From Eledone cirrhosa (lineage: Eukaryota): a stretch of DNA of 64,000 bases. The notes under the pieces are model-generated. The model was not told the DNA's origin and searched no databases. It saw only the letters and a list, made by a program, of their open reading frames with translations. Positions 19,840-58,036 of the stretch are shown one piece after another. The stretch is from contig OZ024745.1 in assembly GCA_964016885.1 (NCBI GenBank), forward strand, positions 92,132,001 to 92,196,000. Direction: 5' to 3'. Position numbers and translations under genes: made by a program. Within the stretch, counting starts at the first letter, position 1, and each line of letters starts with the position of its first letter.

Positions 19840-21069
19840 TGAATATATACAAAGACCAAAGTTCTAGTTTGTAGGAAAGAAAACAAGGCGGCGGTCCCTT
19901 CTGGGAAATGGTCGTGCTCGGTGTGTAGGAAAGGCGTAGGTAGAAACTCCATTTTGTGTCCTAAATGCAAAGTATGGGTGCATAAAAGATGTAGTGGGAT
20001 CACAGGTAAGCTAACTAAGAACATAGATTTTACATGTGGCCGGTGTTCTGGTGCAATAAGTAGCAGCAAGTGCCCACACAATACTAGCTCTTTCAATTGC
20101 GCAGAGGGTTCTATAGAAATAGTGGACAGCTTCCGTTACCTGGGCGATAAAATCAGCAGTGGGGGAGGGTGCTCTGAAAGTACTGTAGCTAGAGTCAGAA
20201 CTGGTTGGAAAAAGTTCAGAGAGCTTATACCACTATTAGCTGCTAAAGGGTTCTCCCTAAAAATGAAAGGCAGGTTGTACGATGCCTGCATACGAACAGC
20301 AATGTTGCATGGCAGTGAGACCTGGGCATTGTGTGCAGAGGATATACGCAGACTAGAGAGGAACGAAGCTTGCATGCTCCGCTGGATGTGTAACAGTAAT
20401 ATACGTGAACGGCAAAGCATAAACGAACTAAGGAAAAAATTAGAGATAAGAGGGATCAGATGTTGTTTACTCGAGAGAAGGCTACGTTGGTATGGACACG
20501 TGATGCGCATGAAAGTCGATAGCTGTATAACAAAGTGCAGGGCAATAAAGATAGACGGTAGCCACGGAATAGGCAGACCTAGAAAAACCTGGGACGAGCT
20601 GATAAACTCCGACCTCACACACTTACACCTCTCCAAGACAATGTCACTGGACCGAGACCTTTGGCGGTACTCAGTAACAGAGAAGACCCGCCTTGCCAGT
20701 AGGCATCTCTAACAAAATACACCCCGTCCCACCACCACCACCCCCACCCCATCCACACCACCCCGTCCTATGTAAAGTTATGTTGGTGCCGCGCCATCCG
20801 GGCCGAAACAAATGAGATCGTGTAGGTGTCACGACAAAAAAACACACAGTCCACGCTGTAATGTGGCCGTGTAGGCAACACGGTAAAAACCTCCCAGACC
20901 CACACTGTAAATGTGGTTGGTGTTAGGAAGGGCATCCAACTGTAGAAAACCTGCCAGACAGTCCTATGCGAGCAAGACAATCACTCTTGCCTCAAGTGGG
21001 ACTACCCCCGTCCAAACCCATGCAAGCGTGGAACACGGACGTTAAACGTTGATGATGATGATGATGATG

Positions 21070-28410: not shown

Positions 28411-28862
28411 AGCTGTAATACTATGATTATATCGAGAGTGGCAATAAGTGATACTATGATTATATCGGGAGTGGCAATAAGTGGAGGAAGATGTAGAAAT
28501 GTTTTCTAGTAAATTAGACTCACTGTTGCATAGATATATAATAAATGACTTTTTAAATAGAGATTATTCTATTAAGCAAAAGTTGTTAAAATCTCTTTTC
28601 CTTTAGATACATAAAGCAGCGTTCTTGCTCCTATCAAAATTCTGAATAAGAAAACAAAAAGAGCTTTGAATTTCTTTCAAACAACATGGCTTTTCTTTCT
28701 AGTTGACTGTAACGATAAAGAAGGAAGTGAGCTTGTAACTTATTTTTTAGAAACATAAATAAATTAAAAAAATGATAAATTGAGAGTCGCAGATGGTCGA
28801 GTTAATAGAATGTTGGGCAATCGGTTTTATATCGATGGTTTGTATCCAAAAGTGGGCTTTAT

Positions 28863-31800
28863 ATGTATATAGACGACGTACTCGTTGCTAGCACATCTCC
28901 AGAGGAACATGTTAAACACCTTCGTTTATTATTTCAACGTTTTAAGAAGTACCAAGTTCGCATTAACCCCGCGAAGTGTATATTTGGTGCGTCTTCGCTA
29001 GTTTTTCTAGGACACATCATTAGTCCTAAAGGCATATCACCTCCACCGGATAAATTGAAAACTCTCCAGGAATTACCTCCTCCTACATCATTACGTCAAT
29101 TCTTGGGACTGCTAAATTATTACCATGGTTTTATTCCACATTGTGCGGAGCGCATAGCACCTCTTTCTGAACTGTTGCGGAACCGAAGAAAGAAACACGA
29201 GTCTATTTCTTTAGACCCTGCTCAACTCGAAGCTTATTCCAGAGTGAAACAGGAATTAGCTGATGTCACCCTGCTTGCACATCCTGTGCCTGATGCCCAG
29301 TTTTCACTGGTCGTTGATGCATCAGGCACAGCAATAGGTGCAGTTTTGCAACAGTACCACAACCAGAAGATTCAACCACTTGCATATTTCTCAAAACAGC
29401 TGAAACCCGATACAGTACTTTCGGCAGAGAACTGTTAGCAATGTACTTGGCAATCAAACACTTCCAGCATTCGTTGGAAGGACGCCAGTTTAGGATTTTC
29501 ACGGACCATCGTCCTTTGACATTTGCTCTCAAAGCGAATCCCGAAAGATACTCGCCACGTGAAACTCGACATTTAGATTATGTATCACAATTCACTAGTG
29601 ATATACGCCATATTCCTGGATCACAGAATTTAGCGGCAGATGCATTATCTCGTTTACTTATCAACTCACTATCGACAAAAATTGATATTGATCTACGTTT
29701 GCTCGCTGCTCACCAGCCTGCTTTGGACGATTTGAATTTATCTGCAACCGAATTTGCGACGTGCAAATTTAAACAATTATCTGTACACAATTCTGACAAG
29801 CATCCTGTGTGACATATCGACTGATTCATCTCGACCCTTCGTTCCGGAACTTCATCGGTGAACAGTTTTCGACACGTTACACAACCTCTCACACCTGGAA
29901 TCCATTCATCAGTGAAACTCATTACGGCTAGATTCTTTTGGCCAAATATGAGACGAGATATCACTGCATGGTCTCGTTCCTGCATACTTTGCCAAAAGTC
30001 TAAGGTGCACAAACACATTCAAGCACCTCTGGGCACATTCAACGCCCCTGATGCCCGCTTTGACCATATTCATATCGACCTAGTTGGACCTTGGCCGGTA
30101 AGTCATGGATATACATACCTTCTTACGTGTATCGACTTGTAGTAAGACGCCTTTACGCCCCCTCGCGGATAATGGACCAGGCCTAGTTGTCTCCCCCTGG
30201 TTGAGAACACCCTAGGTAAGCAGACGGGATACACGCCACAGAAAACAGCCTCTGTACCACGAAACGATAAACAGCCATCGGGAACAGCAAACACCACAAT
30301 ACCTTTGTAATTGTAATACTTCCCATCACCACATCTGGATCACGTATATATTTGGTATGTTTCATTTGTAATATAATAAACACATATAAACAAAATAAAC
30401 ATCACCATTATTTACATTTGTTGAATATAACTCTCGTTGTGGTTATTGTCTTGTTTACGCACACACCCACTCACTTGTTATAATTCTCACTTACAAAAAT
30501 GGTAAATAGACGAGGGACCTTCCCTCACGTCTATGTCGATAAACAATCCAACTAGGATACCTTATTTTACCACAGACTGTTTTACACGTTGACCTGAAGC
30601 CATTCCTCTCGAAGAGATTTCAGCAGAATCGGTAACACGAGCTCTGATGTCTGGCTGGATTTCGCGATACGGTGTCCCTTCCACGCTCACCACTGACCGT
30701 GGCGGACAATTTGAATCACATCTCTTCCATGAACTTTCTAAAATCTTATGGATACATCGTATTAGACCTACTAGTTACCATCCGGCGTCAAATGGCATGA
30801 TAGAACGCTTTCATCGATAATTAAAAGCAGCATTGCGTGCTTATCCCGACCAGCAAAAATGGAGTGAATATCTATCAATTGTTCTCCTTGGCTGTCGCGC
30901 GGCGGTCAGGGAGGATCTCGGATATTCCCTAGCGGAATTGCTGTACGGAACACCTTTATCCTTGCCGGGACAGATGTTAGTCCTAGTCGACGCATCGCGG
31001 GAAGATCCTACGTTATATATTAACCGTTTGCGATCATATTTCAATGATCTTCCGCCTATGGGAACACGTCAACACACGATTAAATCTTCGGTTCCTAAAA
31101 ACATTACTTCTTGGACTCACGTTTTTCTACGTAAAGACTCAGTGAAAGGACCCTACCGTGTCCTGGCAAAAACAGACAAACTTTTTACCATAGACGTTTG
31201 TGGTAGGAAACAGTTTCTGTAGATAGGATTAAACAGGCCTTTACAGACGCTCCCCCAGTTGAACCCCATACACCCCCCCCCCCCCCCCACATTCAATACA
31301 TTGCATGTTGAACCTTCACAAGCATACTCACCCACAACATCACACACACCTTCATTACCTTCACCCACATGTGTTACGACGACTCGTAGTGGTCGTAGAG
31401 TGCATTGGCCTCACAGATTGTGTAAAACAATCTATATATGAACTGTGATATTGTTCAAACTTTTGACTCTTATGTAAACAGTTACTTTTGCTTGTTCAAT
31501 TATGTTATGTTTCATTTCTCTTGGTTGTATTCATGTATGTATCTTTTCTCGGTGTACCCGATGATTGTTTATTGTTTGATGTCATGTAGACATATTGCAT
31601 ATTTAACACTACTCATGTATTGATATCGATCTTCGATCTAAACGGAGGGTACTGTAGTGAACAGAATTAAATGTATTTTCCTTTGGCGTAAGAATGGTGT
31701 CACAGAGGTAAATTGGCTGAAGTGGAGCCAATTAAGGCACTCAGCGGATCGAGACAAGTTGCTGGACTACTTGGACCAGAGACAAAGTTGGCTGACAGAG

Positions 31801-35289: not shown

Positions 35290-36107
35290 CTACAAAACAA
35301 AGGTGTAGAATGTAATCACTCTGGAGATGATGGAGTGATGATACAGCTTCTGTAGATTAATGGAAAGATAATTAGTGATATAATCTTGAGAAAACTCTGA
35401 AACATTTCTAAAGTAGTCCCAGCAGGTTTTAATGCAGATGTTATTTTCTCTTCACTGATTACAGAATTAATCATTAGATGGAAGCAGCTGGAGAGCTTAC
35501 TTAAGTAGTATTGAAACTAATGAAGGTTTGATATAAAATGAGAGAAAAGCAGTAGGGATAACTGTTGGAATAAATGGTCACTGTGATGATAGACTCTTGT
35601 GATGTCCTCCGAAATATATAAGGGCGTAAAATCATTACGAATTTATCAATTGCATTAAATATTGGAAGCGCGTAGCTTAGTGGTAAGTGTTGAACTTACG
35701 ATCATTATCTCGTAGCTTCAATTCCTGGGCTGGGTTGTGTGTTGTGTTCTTGAGCAAAACACTACATTTCACTTCATTTCATGTTGCTCCAGTATACTCA
35801 GCTGAAAATTAGTACCAGCAATAGCTGGGAGTTTAACCCTGCGATGAACTAGCGTCCTGTCCAGGGGAAAGTGTTGTATTCTCAGCTGCTTCACGCCACG
35901 GAACCGGGATAAGCACTGGCTTAACAAACCTTCTGACTCGAGACAGATTTTAGACTTTGATTAAATATTAGATTTATTTATTAAACAAATCTTATAATAG
36001 TCCTTCTTGGGGAGAGAACAACGAGATCTGCCGATAAAGAAATGACTTATTATTATCACACACACTCTTATATATATATTATTTATATATATTATTTATA
36101 TACACCA

Positions 36108-36300
36108 GGGCGGTGGATTGGCAGTATCGGTAGAGGGTCGGACGCCATGCTTTGACGTATAGAGTTACGGCCCTTGCCATTCTGAGTTCAAATCCCGCCG
36201 AGGTTAACTTTGCCTTTCATCCTTACGGAGTCGATAAACTAAAGTACCAGTAATGCACTGGTGTAATTGCTGGCCCTGTGCCAAATGTAGAAACAATTAT
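36108..36300 (+). mobile_element. tRNA-derived SINE, family A (well-preserved copy)
   Basis: GGCGGTGGATTGGCAGTATCGG...GAGTTCAAATCCCGCC...GTAGAAACAATTAT. Confidence 0.85.
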
Positions 36301-36394
36301 TTATATACATTATATAAATATATATTATTTATAACATACATATATATTATATATATATAATATATATGAATAAAAATTAGAAAGAGAAGCCAGG

Positions 36395-36483
36395 ACTATC
36401 CATCATCAGTGATCTACTAGCCATCATAGGTATTTCTTCTCATTAAAGATCAGATACCTCAGGCTAGCACGAACAATAACTAA
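36395..36483 (-). ncRNA. permuted, k-turn-containing hammerhead-like RNA, copy A'
   Basis: CTAGC-C-TGA-GGTAT-C-TGATCT-TTAA-TGAGA-A-GAAA-TACC-TAT-GA-TG-GCTAG-T-AGATCA-CTGATGA-T on the minus strand. Confidence 0.7.
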
Positions 36484-36666
36484 AATAAGTTATTGGGATA
36501 AAAAGAATTGTTTTGAGAAAGAGAGACAGGTAAACAAACAAAAATGGTTGAGGCAACGTAAAGAGAGGAAAAATGAGAAAATCAAGTCAGTGATTCATGT
36601 GAACATAAGAACTTGCCTATCATTGACGAGAAGACGAAAGACATCTTTTTATCCCAATAACTTATT

Positions 36667-36755
36667 TTAGTTATTGTTCGCGCTAGCCTGAGGTATCTGA
36701 TCTTTAATGTGAAGAAATACCTATGATTGCTAGTAGATCACTGATGATGGATAGT
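36667..36755 (+). ncRNA. permuted, k-turn-containing hammerhead-like RNA, copy A
   Basis: Inverted duplicate of A'. Intact core; predicted AUC cleavage after 36697. Confidence 0.7.
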
Positions 36756-37248
36756 CCTGGCTTCTCTTTCTAATTTTTATTCATATGTATCACATTTGCA
36801 ACAACACAGCACCTCATTTTTCATTCCTATATATATATATATATTCTTCTCCCCATGTTTTTCATATATATTTACCTAAACTGCGATTATCTGTTTCTCT
36901 CTTTCTCTCTTACTGCTCCCTCGTTCTCTCTGTTTCTCTTACCTTCTTTCGTCCCCTCTGCCAGTTAACACTTTCTCTCGACTGACCTCTTCCTCGCACT
37001 CCCACTCCCTCACTCTCTGTTTCTCCCCTTCTCACTTCCTCCCGTTCGCTAGGAGTGGGATTCTATCTTTCTCACATCCCATTCACAGCGAAAGGTCTGT
37101 TTTCTGAGCGCTCATGAAATTCACCCAGTTTATGCTGATCGGATAACCATGTTGCTTGTTTTTCTTCCCATCTTCGGTTAGCTTTTCCTTCTATGTTGTT
37201 TACTTGTCTCACTCGCTTTACGCGACTCACTTGGCCCAATAGCTTATT

Positions 37249-37337
37249 TTAGTTATTGCTCGCACCAACCTGAGGTATATGATTTTTAATGCGATGAAAT
37301 ACCAATGATCGTTGGGAAATCACTGATGAGGGACTAA
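37249..37337 (+). ncRNA. permuted, k-turn-containing hammerhead-like RNA, copy B
   Basis: TCGCA-CCAAC-C-TGA-GGTAT-A-TGATTT-TTAA-TGCGA-T-GAAA-TACC-AAT-GA-TC-GTTGG-G-AAATCA-CTGATGA-G. Predicted AUA cleavage after 37279. Confidence 0.7.
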
Positions 37338-37389
37338 TTTTATAATATGTAATCCATGTGCAACCATGCAGTATTCTTCTCCCCATGTT

Positions 37390-37436
<47 letters not shown>

Positions 37437-37817
37437 CACTATATTATATGCAGGTGGATTGGCAGTATCGGTAGAGGGTCGGACGCCATGCTTTGACGCA
37501 TAGAGTTACGGCCCTTGCCATTCTGAGTTCAAATCCCGCTGAGGTTAACTTTGCCTTTCATCCTTACGGGGTCGATAAAATAAAGTACCAGTAATGCACT
37601 GGCTAATTGCTGGCCTTGTGCCAAAAGTAGAAACAATTATATATATTATTTATACGCATTCTATACGGGGGTTTCTCGGGTACCTTCATAAATAAAGAGA
37701 AAGATAGACAGAAAGAGCTAGTGGTTGTGAGAGAGTAGATTGAAAGAGAGACATATATATGAATCTCGGATTCAATCGGGGGTAAGTTACTCAATACATT
37801 AGTAGAGTGTAAACATC

Positions 37818-41444: not shown

Positions 41445-43340
41445 TTGTTATGGTTTGTGAGGGTCATGTTGCCAATAAGAAACACACGCACCAGTTGCTT
41501 TCACTCCAATTTATTATAAATTAAATTTATAAATTTAAGAATTTATAAATTTCCGGTTGGTTGGTTCCATAACCGGACGGTTGTTCATATATTGTCAAAG
41601 TTCTTTCGTCACACATTCTGTGACCTCTTCAGTGACTGGGGATTCTTTTCTTTGTTTTTGTGCCTCTCCTTTGTTCTGTCCTACGCCATCTTGTTTTTGT
41701 GTGTGTTGCGTGCTTAGTTTGCGCATGTGTTACATCCGGGTGTCTGTGTGTGTTTATATTTGTTTATTTATTTATTTATTTACATGTTACTGGTTGGTTG
41801 TTTGTTCTATGTGTGTGTGTGTGTGTGTGTGTTATCATGTTGTCCTTAATTGTAAGTTGTGATGTTGCTATTCCATTCATGTTTTCTATTTAAGTTTGGT
41901 TATAGACTACCCAAGCAAACACCCCAACCATCGATTACCTGTACTAGACACAGAGCTCTGGTTATAAACCATTAATAACAAAAAACAAATCCTCCATTCC
42001 CATTATGCCAAACCCATGACTTCCAAATATCTGATCCACCGAAACTCAGCTGTTTCGGATCACACCAAAATCAACATACTGATTGCGGATTTGGTACGGG
42101 TGATAAGAAACGTGTCCCGCATGTGCAACCCCAAAGAACTAGAGAGACACATACAACACTTCATCCACCGTATGTAGTTCTCTGGTTACAATCAGAGAGA
42201 TAAAATCAGAGTATATAGAGGAGCCAGAACCAAATGGGAAAAAAATGGTAAATAATGATACAAATGGGACATGCCCCTTGTATAGGAGAAAATTTTGGAA
42301 TAGAATAGAAAGAATTAGGAATAAGGTTAATAGAATAAACTCATGGTATGATAGCAATAAATACCAGAGTGTAATGTTCATCAATACTATCCCTAGAGGT
42401 GAATTAGCTTACAAATTTAGAAGGGCCCTAGATAAACATAAACTTAATATTAAGATAGTAGAAAGACCAGGTACCTCCATAAAAACACTTATTAGCAATA
42501 CATACCCTTTTCAAAGACCTCCCTGTATAGATAAGAAATGCATAATCTGTAAACTAAGCCCCCATATTAACTGTAAAACTAGAAATGTAGTATATAGCAT
42601 AAGATGTACTGAAGGACAATGTAAAGATAAGAATATAGTGCACATAGGTGAGACAGCTCGTAGTATAGGAGAACAGTTAAATGAACACTGGCGAGAACTT
42701 CAAGATAAAAAAGAATCATCAATACTCCACTAACATGCAAAAATAGAACATAAGGGCAAATTAGAGAACATAGAAATAAAAATAGAATCTACACACAGAA
42801 AAGACGCAATGTTTAGACAAATCACAGAGGCAATAAACATAAATGAACTCCAACCAAAATTAAATAGAAAACATGAATGGAATAGCAACATCACAACTTA
42901 CAATTAAGGACAAAATGATAACACACACACACATAGAACAAACAACCAACCAGTAACATGTAAATAAACAAATAAATAAACAAATATAAACACATACAGA
43001 CACCCGGATGTAACACATGCGCAAACTAAGCACGCAACACACACAAGAACAAGATGGCGTAAAACAGAACAAAGGAGAGGCACAAAAACAAAGAAAAGAA
43101 TCCCAGTCACTGAAGAGGTCACAGAATGTGTGACGAAAGAACTTTGACAATATATGAACAACCGTCCGGTTATGGAACCAACCAACCGGAAATTTATAAA
43201 TTTAATTTATAATAAATTGGAGTGAAAGCAACTGGTGCGTGTGTTTCTTATTGGCAACATGACTCTCCCAAAGCATAACAATATCGGTTTCAACACACGT
43301 TTTCGGATAAAGAATCTTGCTAAACAAATTCAGAAACGAA

Positions 43341-44164: not shown

Positions 44165-47100
44165 AATATAACATCAAAAGATGGTTAAAAGAGTTCCAAA
44201 TATTTTATTATGCGCATTTCCAAAATAAATACCACAGGTTCGTTCTAATTGCTCTATTTCTAGCTTAAATTTATTGTTTGGTACATCTGAAGTAATTGGC
44301 TGTTTCAACAACCTGAATAAGAAAAACAAACAAAAATTTATTCAATTTGATATTGCCAGCTACTATTCTTCTATTTCGCCTTCACTTCTCAACAATGCTC
44401 TATCTTTCGCATTTAAATATTCTGACATCACCACAGATGAACTTTACATCATTCTCACCGCAAGAAAAACTATCTTAGAATTCAACAATGAATATTGGAC
44501 TAGAGCCGATACTTCCAACAACTTTGATATCACAATGGGTGCTTCCGATTCATCGCAATTGACTGATTTGATTGGTATTTTTATTTTGAATTCTTTAAAT
44601 CGGAAAATTCCTCAACTTCGCGGTGGAATTTATCATAACGATGGACTTTTTACTATCTTAAACTGCAATTTAGTTAACCTTAATATTATTAAGAACAATA
44701 TACGTGATCTCTTTAAGCAACATAACCTTAAAATTGAATTTGATAACAACGTCAAACTAGCTAACTTCTTGGATATATCCCTTAATCTTGACACTGGCCT
44801 ATATTACCTTTACCATAAAAACAATGAGAATCTAAATTATGTTAATTTTAAATCTAACCACCCCACTAACATTAAAAATGCTATAGTCAGTAATATTGGA
44901 AAAAGAATCTCAAACCTATCCTCTAATAAAGATATCTTCGATGCTAACGCCAATTACTATAATAATGCGCTTTCTAAAGCCGGTTATCCTGATAAAATTA
45001 AATACAGTAAAGAAACCAATCCTAGAAGGTCTTACAGTAAAATAATTAATTATGAACATTCCAATAACTTAAATAAAAGACCTAGATACAAAAATATAAT
45101 CTGGTATAATGCTCCTTTCTCTATTTCTATTAATAATAATATTCCTAAACTATTCTTTAGGGCCTTAGATAAATGCTTCCCTCCCTTACATATCTATAGT
45201 AAAATCTTTAACAAACATATAATAAAATGTTCTTATTCCACCTCTTCCAACATCTCTAACATTATCTCTAAACACATCAATAAAATATTAAATAATAAAT
45301 CACATCCTTCCAACACTGAGCGTCATAATAATAGCAGTAGTACTCCTGACGTCATTGTTAACTCTAGGCTAGATTCTGTAAACTTAATACGACGTCAAAC
45401 GTAACTTTGTATTCAATCTAAATCAGGAAACTATTATTCCTATCGTAAATAACTTCTCCAATCCAATTCCTTCTATAAATAACACTAGGTCACTTGTTAA
45501 TAACTCTGTTAATTTCTCTAATCGTAATTGTAATTGCCCTGTTAGAACCAAATGTCCTCTTAATAACCATTGTCTTGATAAAAACTTAGTCTATGAATGT
45601 AAGGTTATAACTGATACCAATTCCTTTACCTATTTCGGTTCCACCTCCACTTCCTTCAAAGCTAGATTTTATAATCACAATTCTTCTTTTAGATACCAAC
45701 TTAAAAGAACTAACACGACACTCTCGGAACTCATATGGTCCTTAAAAGACAAAAATATTAACTATAATATCTCTTGGAGGAAGGTTTGTTCTGCCTTTCC
45801 TTACCTGAATTCTTCCCTATCCAGAACATGTAATCTCTGCCTAGCCGAGAAATTTACCATTATATCTAATTTCAATTCTATAATAAATAGACGCACGGAT
45901 TTATTTTCTCTCTGCTTGCATAAATTCCACAGAACATTCCATAAAGTATACAGCTAATATCTCAATACCTTACTAGTTTAAAATCCTTTTTCTCAAAGGC
46001 TTATATATCTTTTACAAATATACCCATCTTTCTACCTTATTTCAATATTATATATTATATAATACAATTTACTCATTTTATATCATTCCTCTTTATCATT
46101 TTCCTTTCTTCCTTTTTTCTTTTTAATTTCTAACCTCTAATCTGTACTTTTTCTTCCCAATTCTTATTATTACTCACCACAACATTATCCATTCTTCCAT
46201 CTTTCCTCATATCATTGGCCATAAAAATTATTTTTTTAATACATTATAGTATTACCATTAGATGTCCTTCGTAAACATATAATTTTTTGACGTTAGATTT
46301 TTTTCTTCCTTAAATTTTTCTTATCTCCTCCATCCTTTCATGCTCGTTTTAAACTACTACTTAATTTGACTTTTACATATTACAATACATAAAAACAAAC
46401 TTAAATCCTAACTAATTTCTTTTAATATATTATATTATTACCATTAGAAAATATTTCGTAAACATATATACTTTTTGATGTTAGATATTTTCTTCCTTAA
46501 ACATTCTTTTCTTCTTTCCTTCCGCGCTCATTTTAAACAAACTATTTACGTACACATATTACATTACATAAAAACAAACTTAAACCCTAACTAATTCCTC
46601 TAAATTCATAACTCATTCATTCTTCTCCTTCTTTTAACATTATATCCTTAATAACATTACTATTTTTATTTTAATAATACATATTAATAAATTCTTTTCC
46701 TTGCACATATTATTAAACCCTTCAATATACAAACCTTAATTTAACACTATTCTTAATTCCTTTTTCTTCATGCATAAACCTCATTAACTTTTAATTTCAA
46801 AATCTTTTAAATTATCTATTATCTTCCAACGGCTTTTTAATTTCTCTCTGTGAGACAATATATATTTTTTTCTCAGTTGTAAAGGCTAACTCTCTCTCTC
46901 TATCACCCATCTCTCCTCCTCTCTCATCCTTCCTTCTTATACTCCGCCCCCATCATCTCTTCCTCTTCCTTACTCCCCCCCCCTCACTTTTTCCCAATCT
47001 CATGCATCAATCTTAATTTATTTTTCATATGTTGATTTAAAACTTCACTATTCACAAGTGTTTTTTAAGCTTCATATCATGTCTCCCTATTTTATCTGAT

Positions 47101-47232: not shown

Positions 47233-50200
47233 CCTGGGTATAACATTAAACTACATCCAGTGGCAAGGCTCTAGTTCGGGAGTTCAGGAGTGTGGGGAAT
47301 GTGGAGTTACCCCTTAGTTGTCTTAACTCCCAGGTCTGCTCTGGCCCGGAGTAGTAGTACCTGTTAGGGCCCCATTTATGGGTTAAATAACTACCTTATT
47401 CGAGTGGCGCCGGTAAGGTATTGTCAGCCATTGAAAAGAAATATGGAGAGTCGATCTAACAGTACTAGTGTTAGAGCCCCTAATTTCACTGTCAAGGAGC
47501 AGTCTGGTCGTTATGACTCTGCTGGCTTAGAGCCACAGAGAGGGCCAGTGGATGATGGATCAGCTGTCTCTGAGACAAATATAAAGAATGCAGTTTTGTC
47601 CTGCAAAAGAGCCATCAAAATGGGCACTTTGAATGTGAGGACTATTCGGACGCTGGAGAAGAGAGAGGAGTTGGGACATCTGTTCGAGGAGAGTGGTATA
47701 CAGATACTTGCGATCCAAGAACACAGGATCCTACACGATGAGCCCGTGAGGAGTGTGATGATTGGGAAGAGGAGCCAGCTCATCACCACATCGGCAGTGA
47801 AGAACATGACCAATGCTGCAGTGGGAGGAGTGGGTTTTGTTTTCAGCACAAAAAAACAGTTTATTGGTGAGGGAAATAATGCCTGTCTCCCCGCGAGTGT
47901 TGAGGGTGACCTTCAATGGAAACCCAAGACTGACATTCATCTCAGCCTATAGTCCAACCGAGGGAGACAGTGATGTGAGTGCGGAAGAGTTCCATGAGGA
48001 GGTGTGTAGAGCTGTCAACACCACTCAAGCACACAACATCCTGCTTGTTTTGGGGGACTTCAAGGCACATCTGAGTAAGGATGGCAGTGAAGATCCTTAC
48101 TGGTACTTCCATAACAACACCAACCGAAATGGAAGACTACTGAGAGACACCCTGCTGGAGGCGAACTTGATAGCGACCAACCTAAGGTTTAGGAAGAATC
48201 CGGGGAAGATGTGGACCTACATCTCAGATATGCACCTGTCCAAGTCCCAGATTGATTTCATTCTGGTGAGGAAAAAGTGGCGGAATAGTGTTCTGTACAC
48301 ATAACCATACAACTATTGCAGTACACTGGGTAGTGACCACCGGCTTGTTATGAGTGAGGTCCGGGTGAGCTTAAGAAAGAGCAAGGCTCATCCCCGGAGA
48401 GCAATCTATGACTGGGGAGCTTTCAAGGAAGATGATAAGCTACAGGAGAGGTTCACAGTGGAAGTGAGGAACAGGTTCAGTGCTCTGTGTGGAGAGACTG
48501 AGGAGAGTGTGATGAGGAGGTACGGGCACTTCACCAATGCAGTGGCGGAAGCAAGTGAAACCCTGGTGCCGAGGAAAAAGAACAAAAGGAAGCACGTCAG
48601 CTCTGCAAACCCAAAAGTGTGTGCAGCCAGAGAACACCTGAAAGCTGTCAAGGACCAATTCTATGCTGATCCTACGGAGGAGAGGATGGAGACTGTGGAG
48701 GTGATGAGGGAAGAACTCTGTACCGCTTACACTGAGGCCAGAGAGGAGGCACTGATAGAGAAGATCAGAAGTGTGAAGAGAGCGGTTGACAGATCTGGAT
48801 GTAAGGAGAGCTGGATGATCATCAACGAGATCACAGGGAGGAAGAGAGGTGTTCGAATCAGATCCAAGGAACGGGGCCCGAGGATAGGAAGAGGAAATGG
48901 CTAGACCATTTTAGGACCCTACTAGGAGAGCCACCCTCCACAGCCAAGAGCACTGGGGAGATCAGGCGGCTGTTTGAGGAACTGGATGTTGAGACAGAGC
49001 CCTTCACCAGAGAGGAGCTTCAGAGAGCCTAGAAGAGGATCAAGGAGAGCAAGGCTCATGGAGAAGATGGAGTGGCATCAGAGGTGATGAAGAGGTGTGA
49101 TTTTGATGATATCATCCTGGGGTTCTGTAACCAGGCACTGGAGAAAGGAGTTGCCCCGAATCAGTGGAGGATCAGTAACATCGTCCCAGTGCCAAATAAT
49201 GGAGATCTCTCTAACACCAACAGCTACAGGGGGATCTCACTGACGTTACTTGTGGCAAAGACCCTCAACAGGATGATTCTTAACAGGATCCAGCCTGAGA
49301 TGGAGAAGAAGCTCAGGGATAACCAGAACGGCTTCAGAGAGGGAAGATCAACCACCAGTCACATCCTGATGCTGAGGAGGATATTAGAGGGAGCTAGAGC
49401 AAAGTGCCTTCCTGCGGTCATGGTTTTCATTGACTTTAGGAAGGCCTTTGATTCTGTGGACCGTCACTGCCTGATGAAGATCTTACAGGCTTATGGAATC
49501 CCCAAGAAGATAGTGGACCTGATATCACTGCTCTACACCAACACCAAAGCCCAAGTCATTACACCTGATGGGATGACAGAGTTCTTTGAGATACTGGCTG
49601 GAGTGCTCCAGGGAGATACATTAGCTCCCTACCTTTTTATCATCGTAGTGGACTATTGTATGCGCCTTGCACTGGAGAAACACCAGGACTCTGGCTTTAC
49701 TGTAGCACCGGCTCAGAGCAGGAGAGTTAAGGCGAAAAAGGTATCAGATGCTGAATTTGCCGACGACATAGTTTTGGTGACAAATACAGTGAAGGAGGCA
49801 GAGGATTTGATGTAGGAGGTTGAGACTGTGTCGATGAGTGTGGGGCTGAGAATGAATGAGACTAAAACAAAATATCTGGTAGAGAATGTTGAAAAGCCAG
49901 AGGGGATCATTAATGTAGGCGGGAAGCCGCTAGAATTGGTTGAGGACTTCCTGTATTTGGGAGCAAAGATTGGGAATACGGAAGATGATGTGGTTGAGAG
50001 GAAGAGCAAAGCCTGGGCGGCATGCCACAGCTTGAGATCGGTGTGGAAGTCGGACCTTCGTAAAGACCTGAAAATCCGCCTCTTCATTGCTGTAGTGGAG
50101 TCTGTGCTGCTGTACGGGTCTGAGACTTGGACCCTGACCAAGAAACTCACTCAGATGGTGGATGGGTGCTACACGAGAATGCTGAGGATGGCTTTGAACA

Positions 50201-50466
50201 TTAATCAGTATACACTGAGGATGAAAAGCTGTATGGGAGCCTCCCAAAAGTCAGCTCAAAAGAGACACAGAGGAGACTGAGGTTAGCTGGACATGCTCAC
50301 CGACATCCAGAGTTGACATTGCACTCAGTGGTCCTGTGGGAGCCCCTACATGGACACACTGGAAGAGGAAGATCAAGGTTAATGTATGCAGGACATGGCA
50401 GCGATAATGAGGGACAGAGACCGCTGGAGAGAACTCGTCCATGGATCTCGGGAATTTTACCCGCCC
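47230..50466 (+). mobile_element. near full-length, inactivated RTE-clade LINE (APE + RT)
   Basis: APE motifs GTLNVRT, AIQEHR, SAYSPT, LGDF, QIDFIL, SDH. RT motifs YRGISL, QNGFR, FIDFRKAFDSV, GVLQGDTLAP, FADD, FLYLG, YGSETW. Several frameshifts and TAA/TAG stops. Confidence 0.93.
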
Positions 50467-50625
<159 letters not shown>

Positions 50626-50766
50626 ATAATAATAAATTAAATTTGAAGACTAAAATCCAAAGAGGGCTCGATAAGGATAAATATATATTAAATATATAAG
50701 AACCGTAGAGCAAATATTTATTTGTTTCAGAAGATCCCGTTAATGGCTTTGAACATTAATCTGTTA

Positions 50767-51196: not shown

Positions 51197-51251
<55 letters not shown>

Positions 51252-51540
51252 CTGGTTCGCCTTTTTTCTCTCTCTCGTCTACGATTTCACACAACTTATG
51301 TTCACCGAATTCACAGACTAGATTCCTTCTTCCCCCCGTTAGACCTGTACGGAATTCCTTCCTTGCTCACATTCCAACCAGGTTTGATGGTCTTTATTCT
51401 CTCTCGTTCACGATTTCACCGAACTAATATTCATGGAAATTTAGGACTTGACTCGTTCTTCCTCACTTTTCGTTGCTTCACCATCTTTGTTTGTTTACAC
51501 TCTCGTGTCCCCTTTATTTAGGTGTCCCAACGACTTTTTT

Positions 51541-51629
51541 TTAGCCGTTACTCGCACCAACCGGAGGTATATGGTCTTTAAAGCGATGAAATACCAATGA
51601 TGGTTGGAAGATCACTGATCAAGGACTAA
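51541..51629 (+). ncRNA. permuted, k-turn-containing hammerhead-like RNA, copy C (core mutated)
   Basis: Same architecture as copies A and B but the core reads CTGATCA. Confidence 0.62.
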
Positions 51630-51682
51630 CTTTATTCATATGTAACCCATTTGCAACCACGCAGCACGTTTATTCTGATATT

Positions 51683-51726
<44 letters not shown>

Positions 51727-52812: not shown

Positions 52813-55800
52813 AACACTAGATTACACTACACCACAGTACACCACACCACAGCACATTATACTACACTACAATACACTACACCACACTACACCACACTAC
52901 ACCACACTTCACTATACTACACTATACTACACTACACTACCTCACACTACATCACATCACATCACAGCTCAACATTGCACGACATTACATCGTAATATAC
53001 AATACTAGATTATATTACACCACAGTACACTCGCTACACCACACTACACCACACTACACCACACCACACTACACTACACTTCACTATACTACACTACACC
53101 ACACTACACCACACCACACTACACTTCACTATACTACACTACACCACACTACACCACACCACACCACACTACACTTCACTATACTACACTACACCATACC
53201 ACACCGCACTACACTACACCACACTACACTATACAACACCAGACTACAGTACACCACACTACACTATACAACACCACACTACACCACACTACACTACACC
53301 ACAAGCTCAACACCGCACCACATTACATTGTAATATACAAGACTAGATTACATTACACTACACCACACTACACCACACCACACCGCACCACACGACACTA
53401 CACTACACCATACCACATCACACCACACCACAATACACCACACCACATTACACCTCACCACACTACACCACGCCACACTACACCATACCACACTACATCA
53501 CACCACACCGCACCTCACCACACGACACTCATTAGACTACACCGCACTACCCTACACTACACCACACCTCACCACACTACACTGCACCACACCACATACA
53601 CTACACCACACCACACTACACCACACCACACTACACCGCCCCACACTCCACTACACTACACCATACCATACCACACCACAATACACCACATTACACCTCA
53701 CCACACTACACCTCACCACACTACACCACGCCACACTACACCATACCACACTACACCACAGCACACTGCACTACACCATACCACACCACACCACACTACA
53801 CCGTACCACACTACACCACATCACACTACACCATACCACACAACACCACAGCACACTACACTACACCACCCCACATACCGCCATACTACACCACACCACA
53901 CTACACTACACCACACTACACTGCCCCACACCACACCACACCAAACTACACCACACCACATCACGCTACGCCACTCTAAACCCCACCCCACCAGACCACA
54001 CCACATCACACTACACCACACTACACCACACTACACCACACCACACCATACCACGCCACTCTAAACCCCACCACACCACACTACACCACACCTCACCACA
54101 CCACACTACACCACACCACACCACGCCACACCACTCTAAACCCCACCACACCACACTACACCACACCTCACCACACCACACTACACCACACCACACCACA
54201 CCACGCCACACCACTCTAAACCCCACCCCACCCCACCACACTACACCACACTACACCACACCGCACCACGCCACGCCACTCTAAACCCCACCACACTACA
54301 CCACACCACACCACACCATACCACGCCACTCTAAACCCCACCACACCCCACCGCATCACACCATACCACGCCACGCCACTCTAAACCCCACACTACACCA
54401 CACTACACAAAACCACACCACACCATACCACGCCACTCTAAACCCCATCCCACCACACTACACTATATCACACCACGCCATGCCACTCTAAACCCCACCC
54501 CACCACATCACACTACACCACACCACACCACACTACACCACACAACACCACACCATACCACACCACGCCACTCTAAACCCCACCACACCACACTACACCA
54601 CACCTCACCACACCACACCACACTACACCACACCATACCACGCCACTCTAAACCCCACCACACCACACTACACCACACCACGCCACGCCACTCTAAACCC
54701 CCACCACACTACACCACACCACATCACACCATACCACGCCACGCCACTCTAAACCCCACCCCACCACACTACGCTATACCACACCACACCCCACCACGCC
54801 ACTCTAAACCCCACCCCACCACTCTACACTATACCACACCACACAACGCCACGCCACTCTAAACCCCACCCCACCACACCATACCACACCACGCCACTCT
54901 AAACCCCACCCCACCACACTACACTATACCACACCACACCACACCACACCACGCCACGCCACTCTAAACCCCACCACGCCATACCATACCACACCACGCC
55001 ACTCTAAACCCCACCCCACCACACTACACTATACCACACCACACCACGCCACGCCACTCTAAACCCCACCCCACCACACCATACCACACCACGCCACTCT
55101 AAACTCCACCCCACCACACTACACTATACCACACCACACCACGCCACGCCACTCTAAACCCCACCCCACCACACTATACCACACCACGCCACTCTAAACC
55201 CCACCACACCACACTACACTATATCACACCACACCACGCCACGCCACTCTAAACCCCACCCCACCACACCATACCACACCACGCCACTCTAAACCCCACC
55301 ACACCATACCACGCCACGCCACTCTAAACACCACCACACCACACTACACTATACCACACCACACCACACCACACCACGCCACGCCACTCTAAACCCCACC
55401 CCACCATACCACACCACGCCACTCTAAACCCCACCACACCACACTACATTATACAACACCACGCCACTCTAAACCCCACCACACCACACCATACCACGCC
55501 ACGCCACTCTAAACTCCACCACACCACACTACACCACACCACGCCACGCCACTCTAAACCCCCACCACACTACACCACACCACACCACACCACACCACAC
55601 CACATCACACCATACCACGCCACGCCACTCTAAACCCCACCCCACCACACTACACTATACCACACCACACCACGCCACTCTAAACCCCACCCCACCACTC
55701 TACACTATACCACACCACACCACACCACACCACACCACATCACACCATACCACACCACGCCACTCTAAACCCCACCCCACCACACTACACTATACCACAC

Positions 55801-57496
55801 CACACCACACCACGCCACGCCACTCTAAACCCCACCACACCATACCACGCCACGTCACTCTAAACCCCACCACACCACACTACACTATACCACACCACAC
55901 CACACCACGCCACGCCACTCTAAACCCCACCCCACCACACCATACCACACCACGCCACTCTAAACCCCACCCCACCACACTACACTATACCACACCACAC
56001 CACACCACGCCACGCCACTCTAAACCCCACCCCACCACACCATACCACACCACGCCACTCTAAACCCCACCACACCATACCACGCCACACCACTCTAAAC
56101 ACAACCACACCACACTACACTATACCACACCACACTACACCACGCCACGCCACTCTAAACCCCACCCCACCACACCATACCACACCACGCCACTCTAAAC
56201 CCCACCCCACCACACTTCACTATACCACACCACACCACGCCACGCCACTCTAAACCCCACCCCACCACACCATACCACGCCACACCACTCTAAACACCAC
56301 CACACCACACTACACTATACCACACCACGCCACGCCACTCTAAACCCCACCCACCACACCATACCACACCACGCCACTCTAAACCCCACCACACCATACC
56401 ACACCACGCCACTCTAAACCCCACCCCACCACACTACAGTATACCATACCACACCACACCACGCCACTCTAAACCCCACCCCACCATACCACACCACGCC
56501 ACTCTAAACCCCACCACACCACACTACACTATACCACACCACGCCACTCTAAACCCCACCAAACCACACCATCTACACCACACCACACCATCTACACCAC
56601 ACCACACCATACCACACCACACCACTCTAAACCCCACCACACCACACTACACTATACCACACTACACCACACCACACCACACTACACCACACCACACCAT
56701 ACCACACCACACCACTCTAAACCCCACCACACCACACTACACTATACCATACTACACCACACCACACCACACTACACCACACCACACCATACCACGCCAC
56801 ACCACTCTAAACCCCACCACACCACACCACACTACACCACACCACACCATACCACACCACGCCACTCTAAACCCCACCACACCCCACCACACTACACCAC
56901 ACCACACCATACCACACCACGCCACTCTAAACCCCACCACACCACACCACACTACACCACACCACACCATACCACACCACGCCACTCTAAACCCCACCAC
57001 ACCACACCACACTACACCACACCACACCACACTACACCACACTACACCACACCACACTACACCACACCATACCATGCCACACCACGCCACTCTAAACCCC
57101 ACCACACCACACCACACTACACCACACCATACCACACCACGCCACTCTAAACCCCACCCCACCACACTACACTATACCACACTACACCACACCACACCAT
57201 ACCACACCACGCCACTCTAAACCCCACCACACCACACTACACCACACCACACCATACCACACCACACCACTCTAAACCCCAGCACACCACACTACACTAT
57301 ACCACACTACACCATACCACACCACGCCACTCTAAACCCCACCACACTACACTATACCACACCACACCATACCACACCACGCCACTCTAAACCCCACCAC
57401 ACCACACTACACTATACCACACTACACCACACCACACCATACCACACCACACCACTCTAAACCCCACGACACCACACTACACTATACCACACTACA
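52813..57496. repeat. 4.7-kb complex (ACACC/ACACT)n satellite with periodic CCACTCTAAACCCC motif
   Basis: Pentamer-based array. From ~53970 onward each ~30-60-bp unit carries CCACTCTAAACCCC. Confidence 0.95.
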
Positions 57497-58036
57497 ATTC
57501 TGCCAACGTTTACTACATTCGATTACATTGAATTAACTTCTGTATTGAAACCCAGTTGGAGTCGATTTGGTTTTCCATTGTTCCGAGGTCGATAAAATAA
57601 TTATCTTCAATATAGATCTTGAAACGTTATAAATATAAAGGGCGGCGGCTTGGCAATATCGGTAGAGAGTCGGACGGCATGCTTTCCAGCATAGTTACGG
57701 CCCTTGCCGTTCTGAGTTCAAATCCCGCCGAGGTTAACTTTGCCTTTCATCCTTACGAGGTCGATAAAATAAAGTACCAGTTATGCACTGGGGTAATTGC
57801 TGGCCTTGTGCCAAAAGTAGAAACAATTATAAATATAAAGGAAAATCAATTATATAGACGTCAGTACTTGACTGGTACTTTATTTAATCAACCTCGAAAG
57901 GATGACAGGCAAATTTGACTTCGGCGGGATTTGACCTAAAGGTCTGTCATTAAATACTGCAACGCATGTTGTCCGACGCTCTACCGATTCTGCAAATACA
58001 CCGCCCTGGCAAACAGACATCGTAATATTTAAAGTG

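Follow-up and report, generated by a model that had tools for sequence, protein, structure and literature searches.

The window analysed here, a 64,000-nt stretch of the Eledone cirrhosa genome, contains four copies of a motif in which the conserved letters of a hammerhead ribozyme occur in permuted order, at 36692 (+), 37274 (+), 51566 (+) and 36458 (-). This raises the question of what kind of element carries the motif, how that element is copied, and whether the motif itself is catalytic. The analysis identifies the carrier as an abundant, non-autonomous, retrozyme-like element of the Penelope-like (PLE) type, and the motif as a rewired hammerhead that departs from type I, having its blocks in S-G-C order and a split stem II.

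Three of the four motifs lie in a single cluster, which was originally described as a tandem of one unit, A and B, preceded by an inverted duplicate, A'. The inverted pair withstands closer inspection: its arms (36355-36513 and 36637-36795) are 97% identical over 147 nt. A' itself is longer than first noted (36355..36642, minus strand), and is a 5'-truncated family-A copy that ends at the inner 3' end without a tail, is 91.5% identical to a family-A monomer from another locus (L082), and has its predicted cut between 36453 and 36452. The adjoining A copy (36643..36827, plus strand) is likewise 5'-truncated, but it possesses the tail, and A' and A are read as a single head-to-head insertion event of family A with a tail on A only. 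Behind A lies a (TA)n run (36828..36843), the inferred target of a subsequent insertion from family B. This insertion comprises a 29-nt stub (36842..36870, +), which forms a pLTR-like partial tandem with the full, non-coding and pyrimidine-rich unit of 530 nt that follows it (36871..37400, +), and its 3' end meets a further (TA)n run (37394..37429). The 29-nt tail is present twice (36842-36870 and 37372-37400), and a B dimer aligns to 36842-37404 without a break at 97% identity.

The tandem reading of A and B does not survive this dissection. The two are separate families that are 75-80% identical, and in patches only; A copies elsewhere end in their own tail followed by (TA)n, and the 29-mer with which A seemed to end is the stub of B. 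Although 582 nt do separate the cut predicted for A (after 36697) from that predicted for B (after 37279), B was inserted into the (TA)n behind a family-A insertion, and this interval is therefore a chimaera of two families rather than a monomer. The family units are not of about 580 nt but of about 530, 570 and 637 nt, and the RNA junction proposed in the initial annotation, joining 37279 to 36698, does not hold for the families. The cluster is flanked by two copies, on the same strand, of a SINE-like repeat of about 180 nt (36106-36290 and 37452-37640), and more copies occur elsewhere in the window.

The fourth motif belongs to copy C (51249..51691, +), which is situated between (TA)n runs. 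B and C have the motif, the tail, pyrimidine-rich leaders and terminal (TA)n in common, as initially described, but C is not a complete unit: it is a 5'-truncated member of family C (443 of 637 nt), and the core of its motif (51525-51626, +) reads CTGATCA, a G8 change that is predicted to render it inactive. Family C also contains an internal duplication of 65 nt (75% identity; 51269-51333 and 51398-51462), which partly accounts for its longer monomer. Other repeats in the window include a long array of 5-nt-based repeats with a strong C/A skew at about 52900-57500, as well as, at 47368-50699 (+), 19843-20712 (+) and 28809-29812 (+), what we take from their motifs to be broken LINE-like frames and an RT/RNase H fragment like that of an LTR retrotransposon.

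In A, the motif spans 36651..36752 (+), with an AUC cleavage triplet and an intact CTGATGA core. In B, it spans 37233..37334 (+), and its upstream part consists of helix a' (37233-36), a hairpin (37238-57) and a stem II strand (37260-63). These are followed by stem III (37274-78), whose extension contains a predicted k-turn, stem I (37280-85/37317-22), the core blocks GAAA (37296-99) and CTGATGA (37323-29), and helix a (37331-34). From 5' to 3', the cleavage block therefore precedes the GAAA block, which in turn precedes the CUGAUGA block, and this S-G-C order sets the motif apart from the type I hammerheads of non-LTR retrozymes. Copy C excepted, the conserved CUGAnGA, GAAA and UH elements of the core are all present.

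The principal departure lies in stem II. The bases following CUGAUGA pair, as helix a, with a strand some 40 nt upstream of the cut, and this upstream strand leads through the hairpin to supply the partner of the GCGA that precedes GAAA. In families A-C, direct contact between the CUGAUGA and GAAA blocks is confined to a single pair (A-U, U-A or G-U), and stem II thus lacks the uninterrupted multi-pair C-block/G-block pairing of type-SGC hammerheads; the motif instead adds a four-way junction at stem II and the predicted k-turn. The letters of the stem III extension fit what we take to be the standard k-turn consensus, with a 3-nt bulge and tandem GA, and such a turn would be expected to fold the end of the extension back beside stem I across a 1-nt linker. 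Rfam detects no hammerhead in the window, where 69 sub-threshold matches are nearly all microsatellite hairpins, or in five further loci, and nested minimum-free-energy folding misses the pseudoknotted core. No tRNA was found in the window.

A genome-wide search with the unit, the check put forward in the initial annotation, returned thousands of candidate copies: at first look, 4271 for the B unit, 3972 for the C unit and 2935 for the A segment, with the best full-length copies among the 40 scored for each query being 91-98% identical. Across the 3.0 Gb searched, a pattern for the S-G-C motif gives 7,733 exact matches against 0 for the reversed control, and a pattern leaving out families A-C gives 135 further matches, again against 0, which fall mostly into families D and E. 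These latter families (loci L426-L455, for example L454:1448-1572, and L516-L527) are non-coding and have the same S-G-C fold with different stems. Family D, in which stem II is complete and G-C, is perhaps the most promising choice for assaying cleavage, and family E is older, its copies being about 67-90% identical to one another. In true tandems, the cut-to-cut monomer measures 568 nt in A, 529-531 nt in B and 634-679 nt in C-type copies. Matches to the motif in metagenomes (80 of 117 stretches) and viral contigs (53) were rejected as chance occurrences, none of these 133 pairing at all five tested positions of stem I, as compared with 28 of 30 loci from the animal's own genome.

Helix pairing is maintained as the copies diverge. 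In an alignment of 14 copies, whose relatedness can inflate measures of covariation, pairing is seen in 96.2% of cells, and both sides change in 14 of the 32 pairs; neither value is reached in any of 500 shuffles, and controls slid along the same alignment pair at 26-50%. One of five measures, that of further pair types, is not above the shuffles (417/500). Among 119 distinct ungapped copies, 94-98% show pairing in stem I, which covaries, and the core-adjoining pair on the stem II side, which occurs as three types, pairs in 85% of the same copies and fails in 15%. Among the 14 aligned copies, the 4-bp helix below that pair shows no double-sided change, and helix a has one in 3 of 13 rows. In families A-C stem III does not vary, being fixed by the search pattern, yet by eye it has another sequence, still paired, in families D and E, which display the same layout as A-C with other stem sequences.

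How the elements are copied can be read from the ends of their insertions. The first 30 pattern matches on one contig (C1) represent 25 distinct insertions, a sample in which an intact motif was required and in which ends at the cut are invisible. Seven of the 25 are longer than one unit, 5' ends vary between copies, and an adjacent inverted copy was flagged in two; arrays reach up to four units. In contrast to the 5' ends, the 3' ends form two groups, near +72 or at +112 to +135 from the cut, and run into (TA)n. The families combine the attributes of a retrozyme, namely a non-coding repeat with one hammerhead motif per unit that occurs in tandems, with those of PLEs and Naiads: 5' truncation, partial tandems, inverted 5' copies, an optional tail and (TA)n targets. 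With its two alternative 3' ends, this anatomy bears out the proposal that the unit is a non-autonomous, PLE-style retroelement with a permuted hammerhead.

Given the inverted pair and the abundance of copies, a MITE, another DNA transposon or a satellite could also be considered, with A' and A as terminal inverted repeats. Yet the 5' ends and inversion points differ from copy to copy and only the 3' ends are constant, an inverted partner is absent from most copies, and no fixed terminal inverted repeat was seen, target-site duplications being unreadable in (TA)n. Variable 5' truncation largely refutes this explanation, which is considered highly improbable. Far better supported is the reading that these short families (monomers of the three lengths given above) move as RNA by means of a PLE reverse transcriptase acting in trans, and that their S-G-C core would cleave itself; this is held with good confidence.

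Evidence bearing on cleavage comes from the predicted scissile bond. Sixteen copies carry an insertion exactly at this bond, and in seven of them the insertion is non-duplicative and at least 2 nt long. These seven scars are mostly purine-rich, and every insert is different. Four of the seven come after a C, that of the AUC triplet, and no insert consists of TA repeats; TA slippage fails to explain the scars because of these four. At 12 neighbouring downstream junctions, examined with a more lenient pattern, 45 insertions were found, nearly all of which are homopolymer slips or tandem duplications, with only three non-duplicative cases of at least 2 nt and six of any length. Binomial tests for seven scars at the one pre-specified junction among 13, with control counts of 1, 2, 4 and 6, give a weakest p of 1.8e-5, a value to be read in light of the small numbers, the origin of the hypothesis in two of the seven cases, and the position of all control junctions downstream of the cut. 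The scars suggest cleavage and rejoining, and would constitute new genomic evidence for both. Most simply, they would stem from RNA that is cut at the predicted bond, in some cases tailed, and joined again either ahead of reverse transcription or in its course; ligation into a circle and template jumping by the reverse transcriptase are both compatible with them.

The 5' breaks of copies are less distinctive. Divergence immediately 5' of the cut is seen in no more than 59 A-like copies, and the 30 of these that were inspected include many internal deletions, insertions and inversions. With a wider pattern, 100 of 148 matches were read by eye, giving some 9-13 breaks at +1, with as many as 11 at +10, counts that come from a pattern which is off by one base and admits substitutions. 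The breaks at the cut site are a local peak only, no higher than at +6 to +12.

In a second alternative, the motif is a folded protein-binding signal inherited from Naiads that is catalytically weak or dead in families A-C, copying proceeds from uncut read-through transcripts, and the scars are footprints of DNA repair or of an endonuclease. Thousands of copies cross the cut bond seamlessly, against the 59 A-like copies that diverge just upstream of it; the stem II junction is imperfect; and the bond lies within TATA or TATC, near the AT-rich target that the endonuclease prefers. Furthermore, insertion by a PLE in vitro does not need cleavage, the ribozyme being dispensable there (PMC11167929). 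Against it stand the position of four of the seven scars behind a C, the lack of TA repeats among them, and the catalytic letters, which are fixed across families A-E despite the turnover of stem sequence. This alternative is judged unlikely, and catalysis by the motif probable.

If the RNA is cut and rejoined, the product could be a covalent circle. In its strictest form, this possibility holds that monomers are ligated by an RtcB-like activity into abundant circles, and that rolling-circle reverse transcription of these gives rise to the partial tandems. Arrays of up to four units would be expected from such a process, scars at the cut bond require rejoining of some kind, and the metazoan type I retrozymes provide a precedent, as far as the accessible account of them goes (PMC7229834). 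The arrays themselves give a divided answer. Units of one B array are 99.1-99.4% identical to one another, as compared with a mean of 94.5% between loci, but this is the only one of three multi-unit B arrays to be nearly identical internally, and the other two, at 95-96%, are no closer than unrelated loci. On average, identity is only slightly higher within than between arrays, at 0.969 versus 0.947 for B and 0.973 versus 0.969 for C. The U/C-rich B monomer folds weakly (z -1.7). Tailed 3' ends are poor substrates for RtcB, and the scars consequently fit template jumping equally well.

The fixed 3' ends, similarly, are no proof of a circle, because the Poseidon PLE has been shown in vitro to initiate at two internal sites, with uncut RNA as the main template (PMC11167929), and internal initiation on uncut multimers would explain them without one. 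The two 3' ends bracketing the AC-rich tail that the copies share (37345..37371, + in B) match this two-site initiation, and by analogy with Poseidon the tail is inferred to be the region in which reverse transcription would start. A covalent circle is a tentative proposal, and copying chiefly through abundant circles is put at slightly less than an even chance.

The enzyme that moves the elements was sought in the same genome. Although the initial annotation anticipated copies attached to their own RT/GIY-YIG ORF, none was found; the ORF lists of the family loci showed no shared ORF on inspection, no ORF lies upstream of 12 family-E loci, and no autonomous element bearing the S-G-C motif was encountered in the genome. 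A strict pattern for the Naiad RT motif, whose strictness may miss Naiads, gave 0 matches genome-wide, and this pattern together with the checks of the family loci yielded no Naiad ORF. Motif pairs 2.9 kb apart were considered as a pLTR-ORF-pLTR arrangement and rejected, as they enclose an antisense Neptune-like fragment. At three loci (L103, L116 and L117), antisense fragments of Neptune-like PLEs lie directly 5' of truncated retrozyme copies, possibly as a result of template switches between RNAs.

Two young PLE families were also rejected as carriers of the motif, having ordinary type I-like hammerheads and other 3' ends. One young family is represented by 137 scored matches at 96-100% identity, with ORFs of 1226-1240 aa; it ends in (TA)n, is found at L528:3729-7406 (-) and L529:952-4671, and has left a 3' fragment in the window (42143-42733). 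It is abundant, carries its type I-like hammerhead at the 3' end and has a GIY-YIG-like C-terminus, and Pfam finds nothing in the element. The other is a Neptune-like family; clade names are assigned here from sequence motifs, Pfam barely recognizing either family. The window itself includes two overlapping frames at 44229-45957 (+) that are without a Pfam match, and which we take to be PLE-like, the first resembling an RT and the second a GIY-YIG domain. The most likely helper would be one of the young, (TA)n-associated PLEs.

Naiads are described, in the portions of the publication consulted, as having (TA)n targets, partial tandems, inverted 5' copies, an optional tail and 5' truncation, and as lacking canonical hammerheads, with eight of them, including Naiad_Ovul, marked as having a 'half core' (PMC8557442). 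In the excerpts of its supplement, visual comparison finds the fold of the present motif again at the 3' ends of Naiad_Obim and Naiad_Ovul, with an identical hairpin loop and the letters of the k-turn, and their stem II is fully G-C and formed from the upstream strand; in three related records and another one, the S-G-C order is present but the k-turn is missing. Within the limits of these excerpts, the most likely source of the motif fold is the 3' end of Naiads.

Together, these observations suggest a mechanism for the preferred reading, that of a non-autonomous element with a self-cleaving motif. A PLE-like reverse transcriptase supplied in trans would move the element RNA, tandem transcripts of which would be cut to unit length at the S-G-C hammerhead. 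The cut ends would mostly be rejoined seamlessly, or the RNA left uncut, and would occasionally be tailed and then rejoined, by circle ligation or template jumping, to leave scars. From a nick in (TA)n, reverse transcription would begin at an internal site some 70 or 120 nt 3' of the cut, and its variable stopping points would produce partial tandems and inverted 5' copies. In its most far-reaching form, the proposal is that the ribozyme missing from Naiads is a new hammerhead architecture, with S-G-C order, a core split by a four-way junction and a stem III bent by a k-turn that possibly binds Snu13/15.5K; that it is active here and drives young, pyrimidine-rich, circular retrozymes; and that the scars record its processing. 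This combination is advanced as a conjecture, judged slightly less likely than not.

An S-G-C hammerhead with extra helices in an animal genome would widen the known space of the fold and illustrate why standard descriptors miss such motifs. If the proposal is correct, the reported absence of hammerheads from Naiads is explained, and a second, independent fold becomes available in which the role of the ribozyme in PLEs can be tested. Counting scars, moreover, is a simple assay of in vivo cleavage that needs only a genome and could be used on any ribozyme-bearing repeat.

Three known systems offer a comparison. The type-SGC hammerheads (HRIMA-1 and variants) come from metatranscriptomes and, in the available text of their description, are absent from genomes of known organisms save for one type-GCS candidate (Eckert et al. 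2023, PMC10085705); a literature search, conducted mostly outside subscription journals, likewise returned no description of the S-G-C fold in an animal genome. According to that text, they share with the present motif the S-G-C order, the CUGAnGA, GAAA and UH elements, a short linker connecting stem I with the stem II strand, and mutually crossing stems. Here, by contrast, there are thousands of genomic copies in an animal, the upstream strand provides most of stem II through a four-way junction, and stem III has an extension with a predicted k-turn.

Naiads, as far as the consulted portions describe them (Craig et al. 2021, PMC8557442), resemble the present elements in the insertion traits listed above, from (TA)n targets and 5' truncation to partial tandems, the inverted 5' copy and the optional tail. 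Unlike Naiads, however, the elements described here are non-coding and only 0.5-0.65 kb long, and families A-C lack the complete G-C stem II that adjoins GAAA in the Naiad motifs as published. Finally, metazoan non-LTR retrozymes possess type I hammerheads and produce RNAs of 170-400 nt that, in the accessible parts of the reports, have been shown to be circular (Cervera and de la Pena 2020, PMC7229834; Li et al. 2026, 10.64898/2026.07.22.740005). They too are non-coding repeats, arranged in tandem or dispersed, in which each unit has one hammerhead, and have been proposed to be non-autonomous derivatives of PLEs, but the units of 530-640 nt in this genome are weakly folded and occur mostly as truncated monomers.
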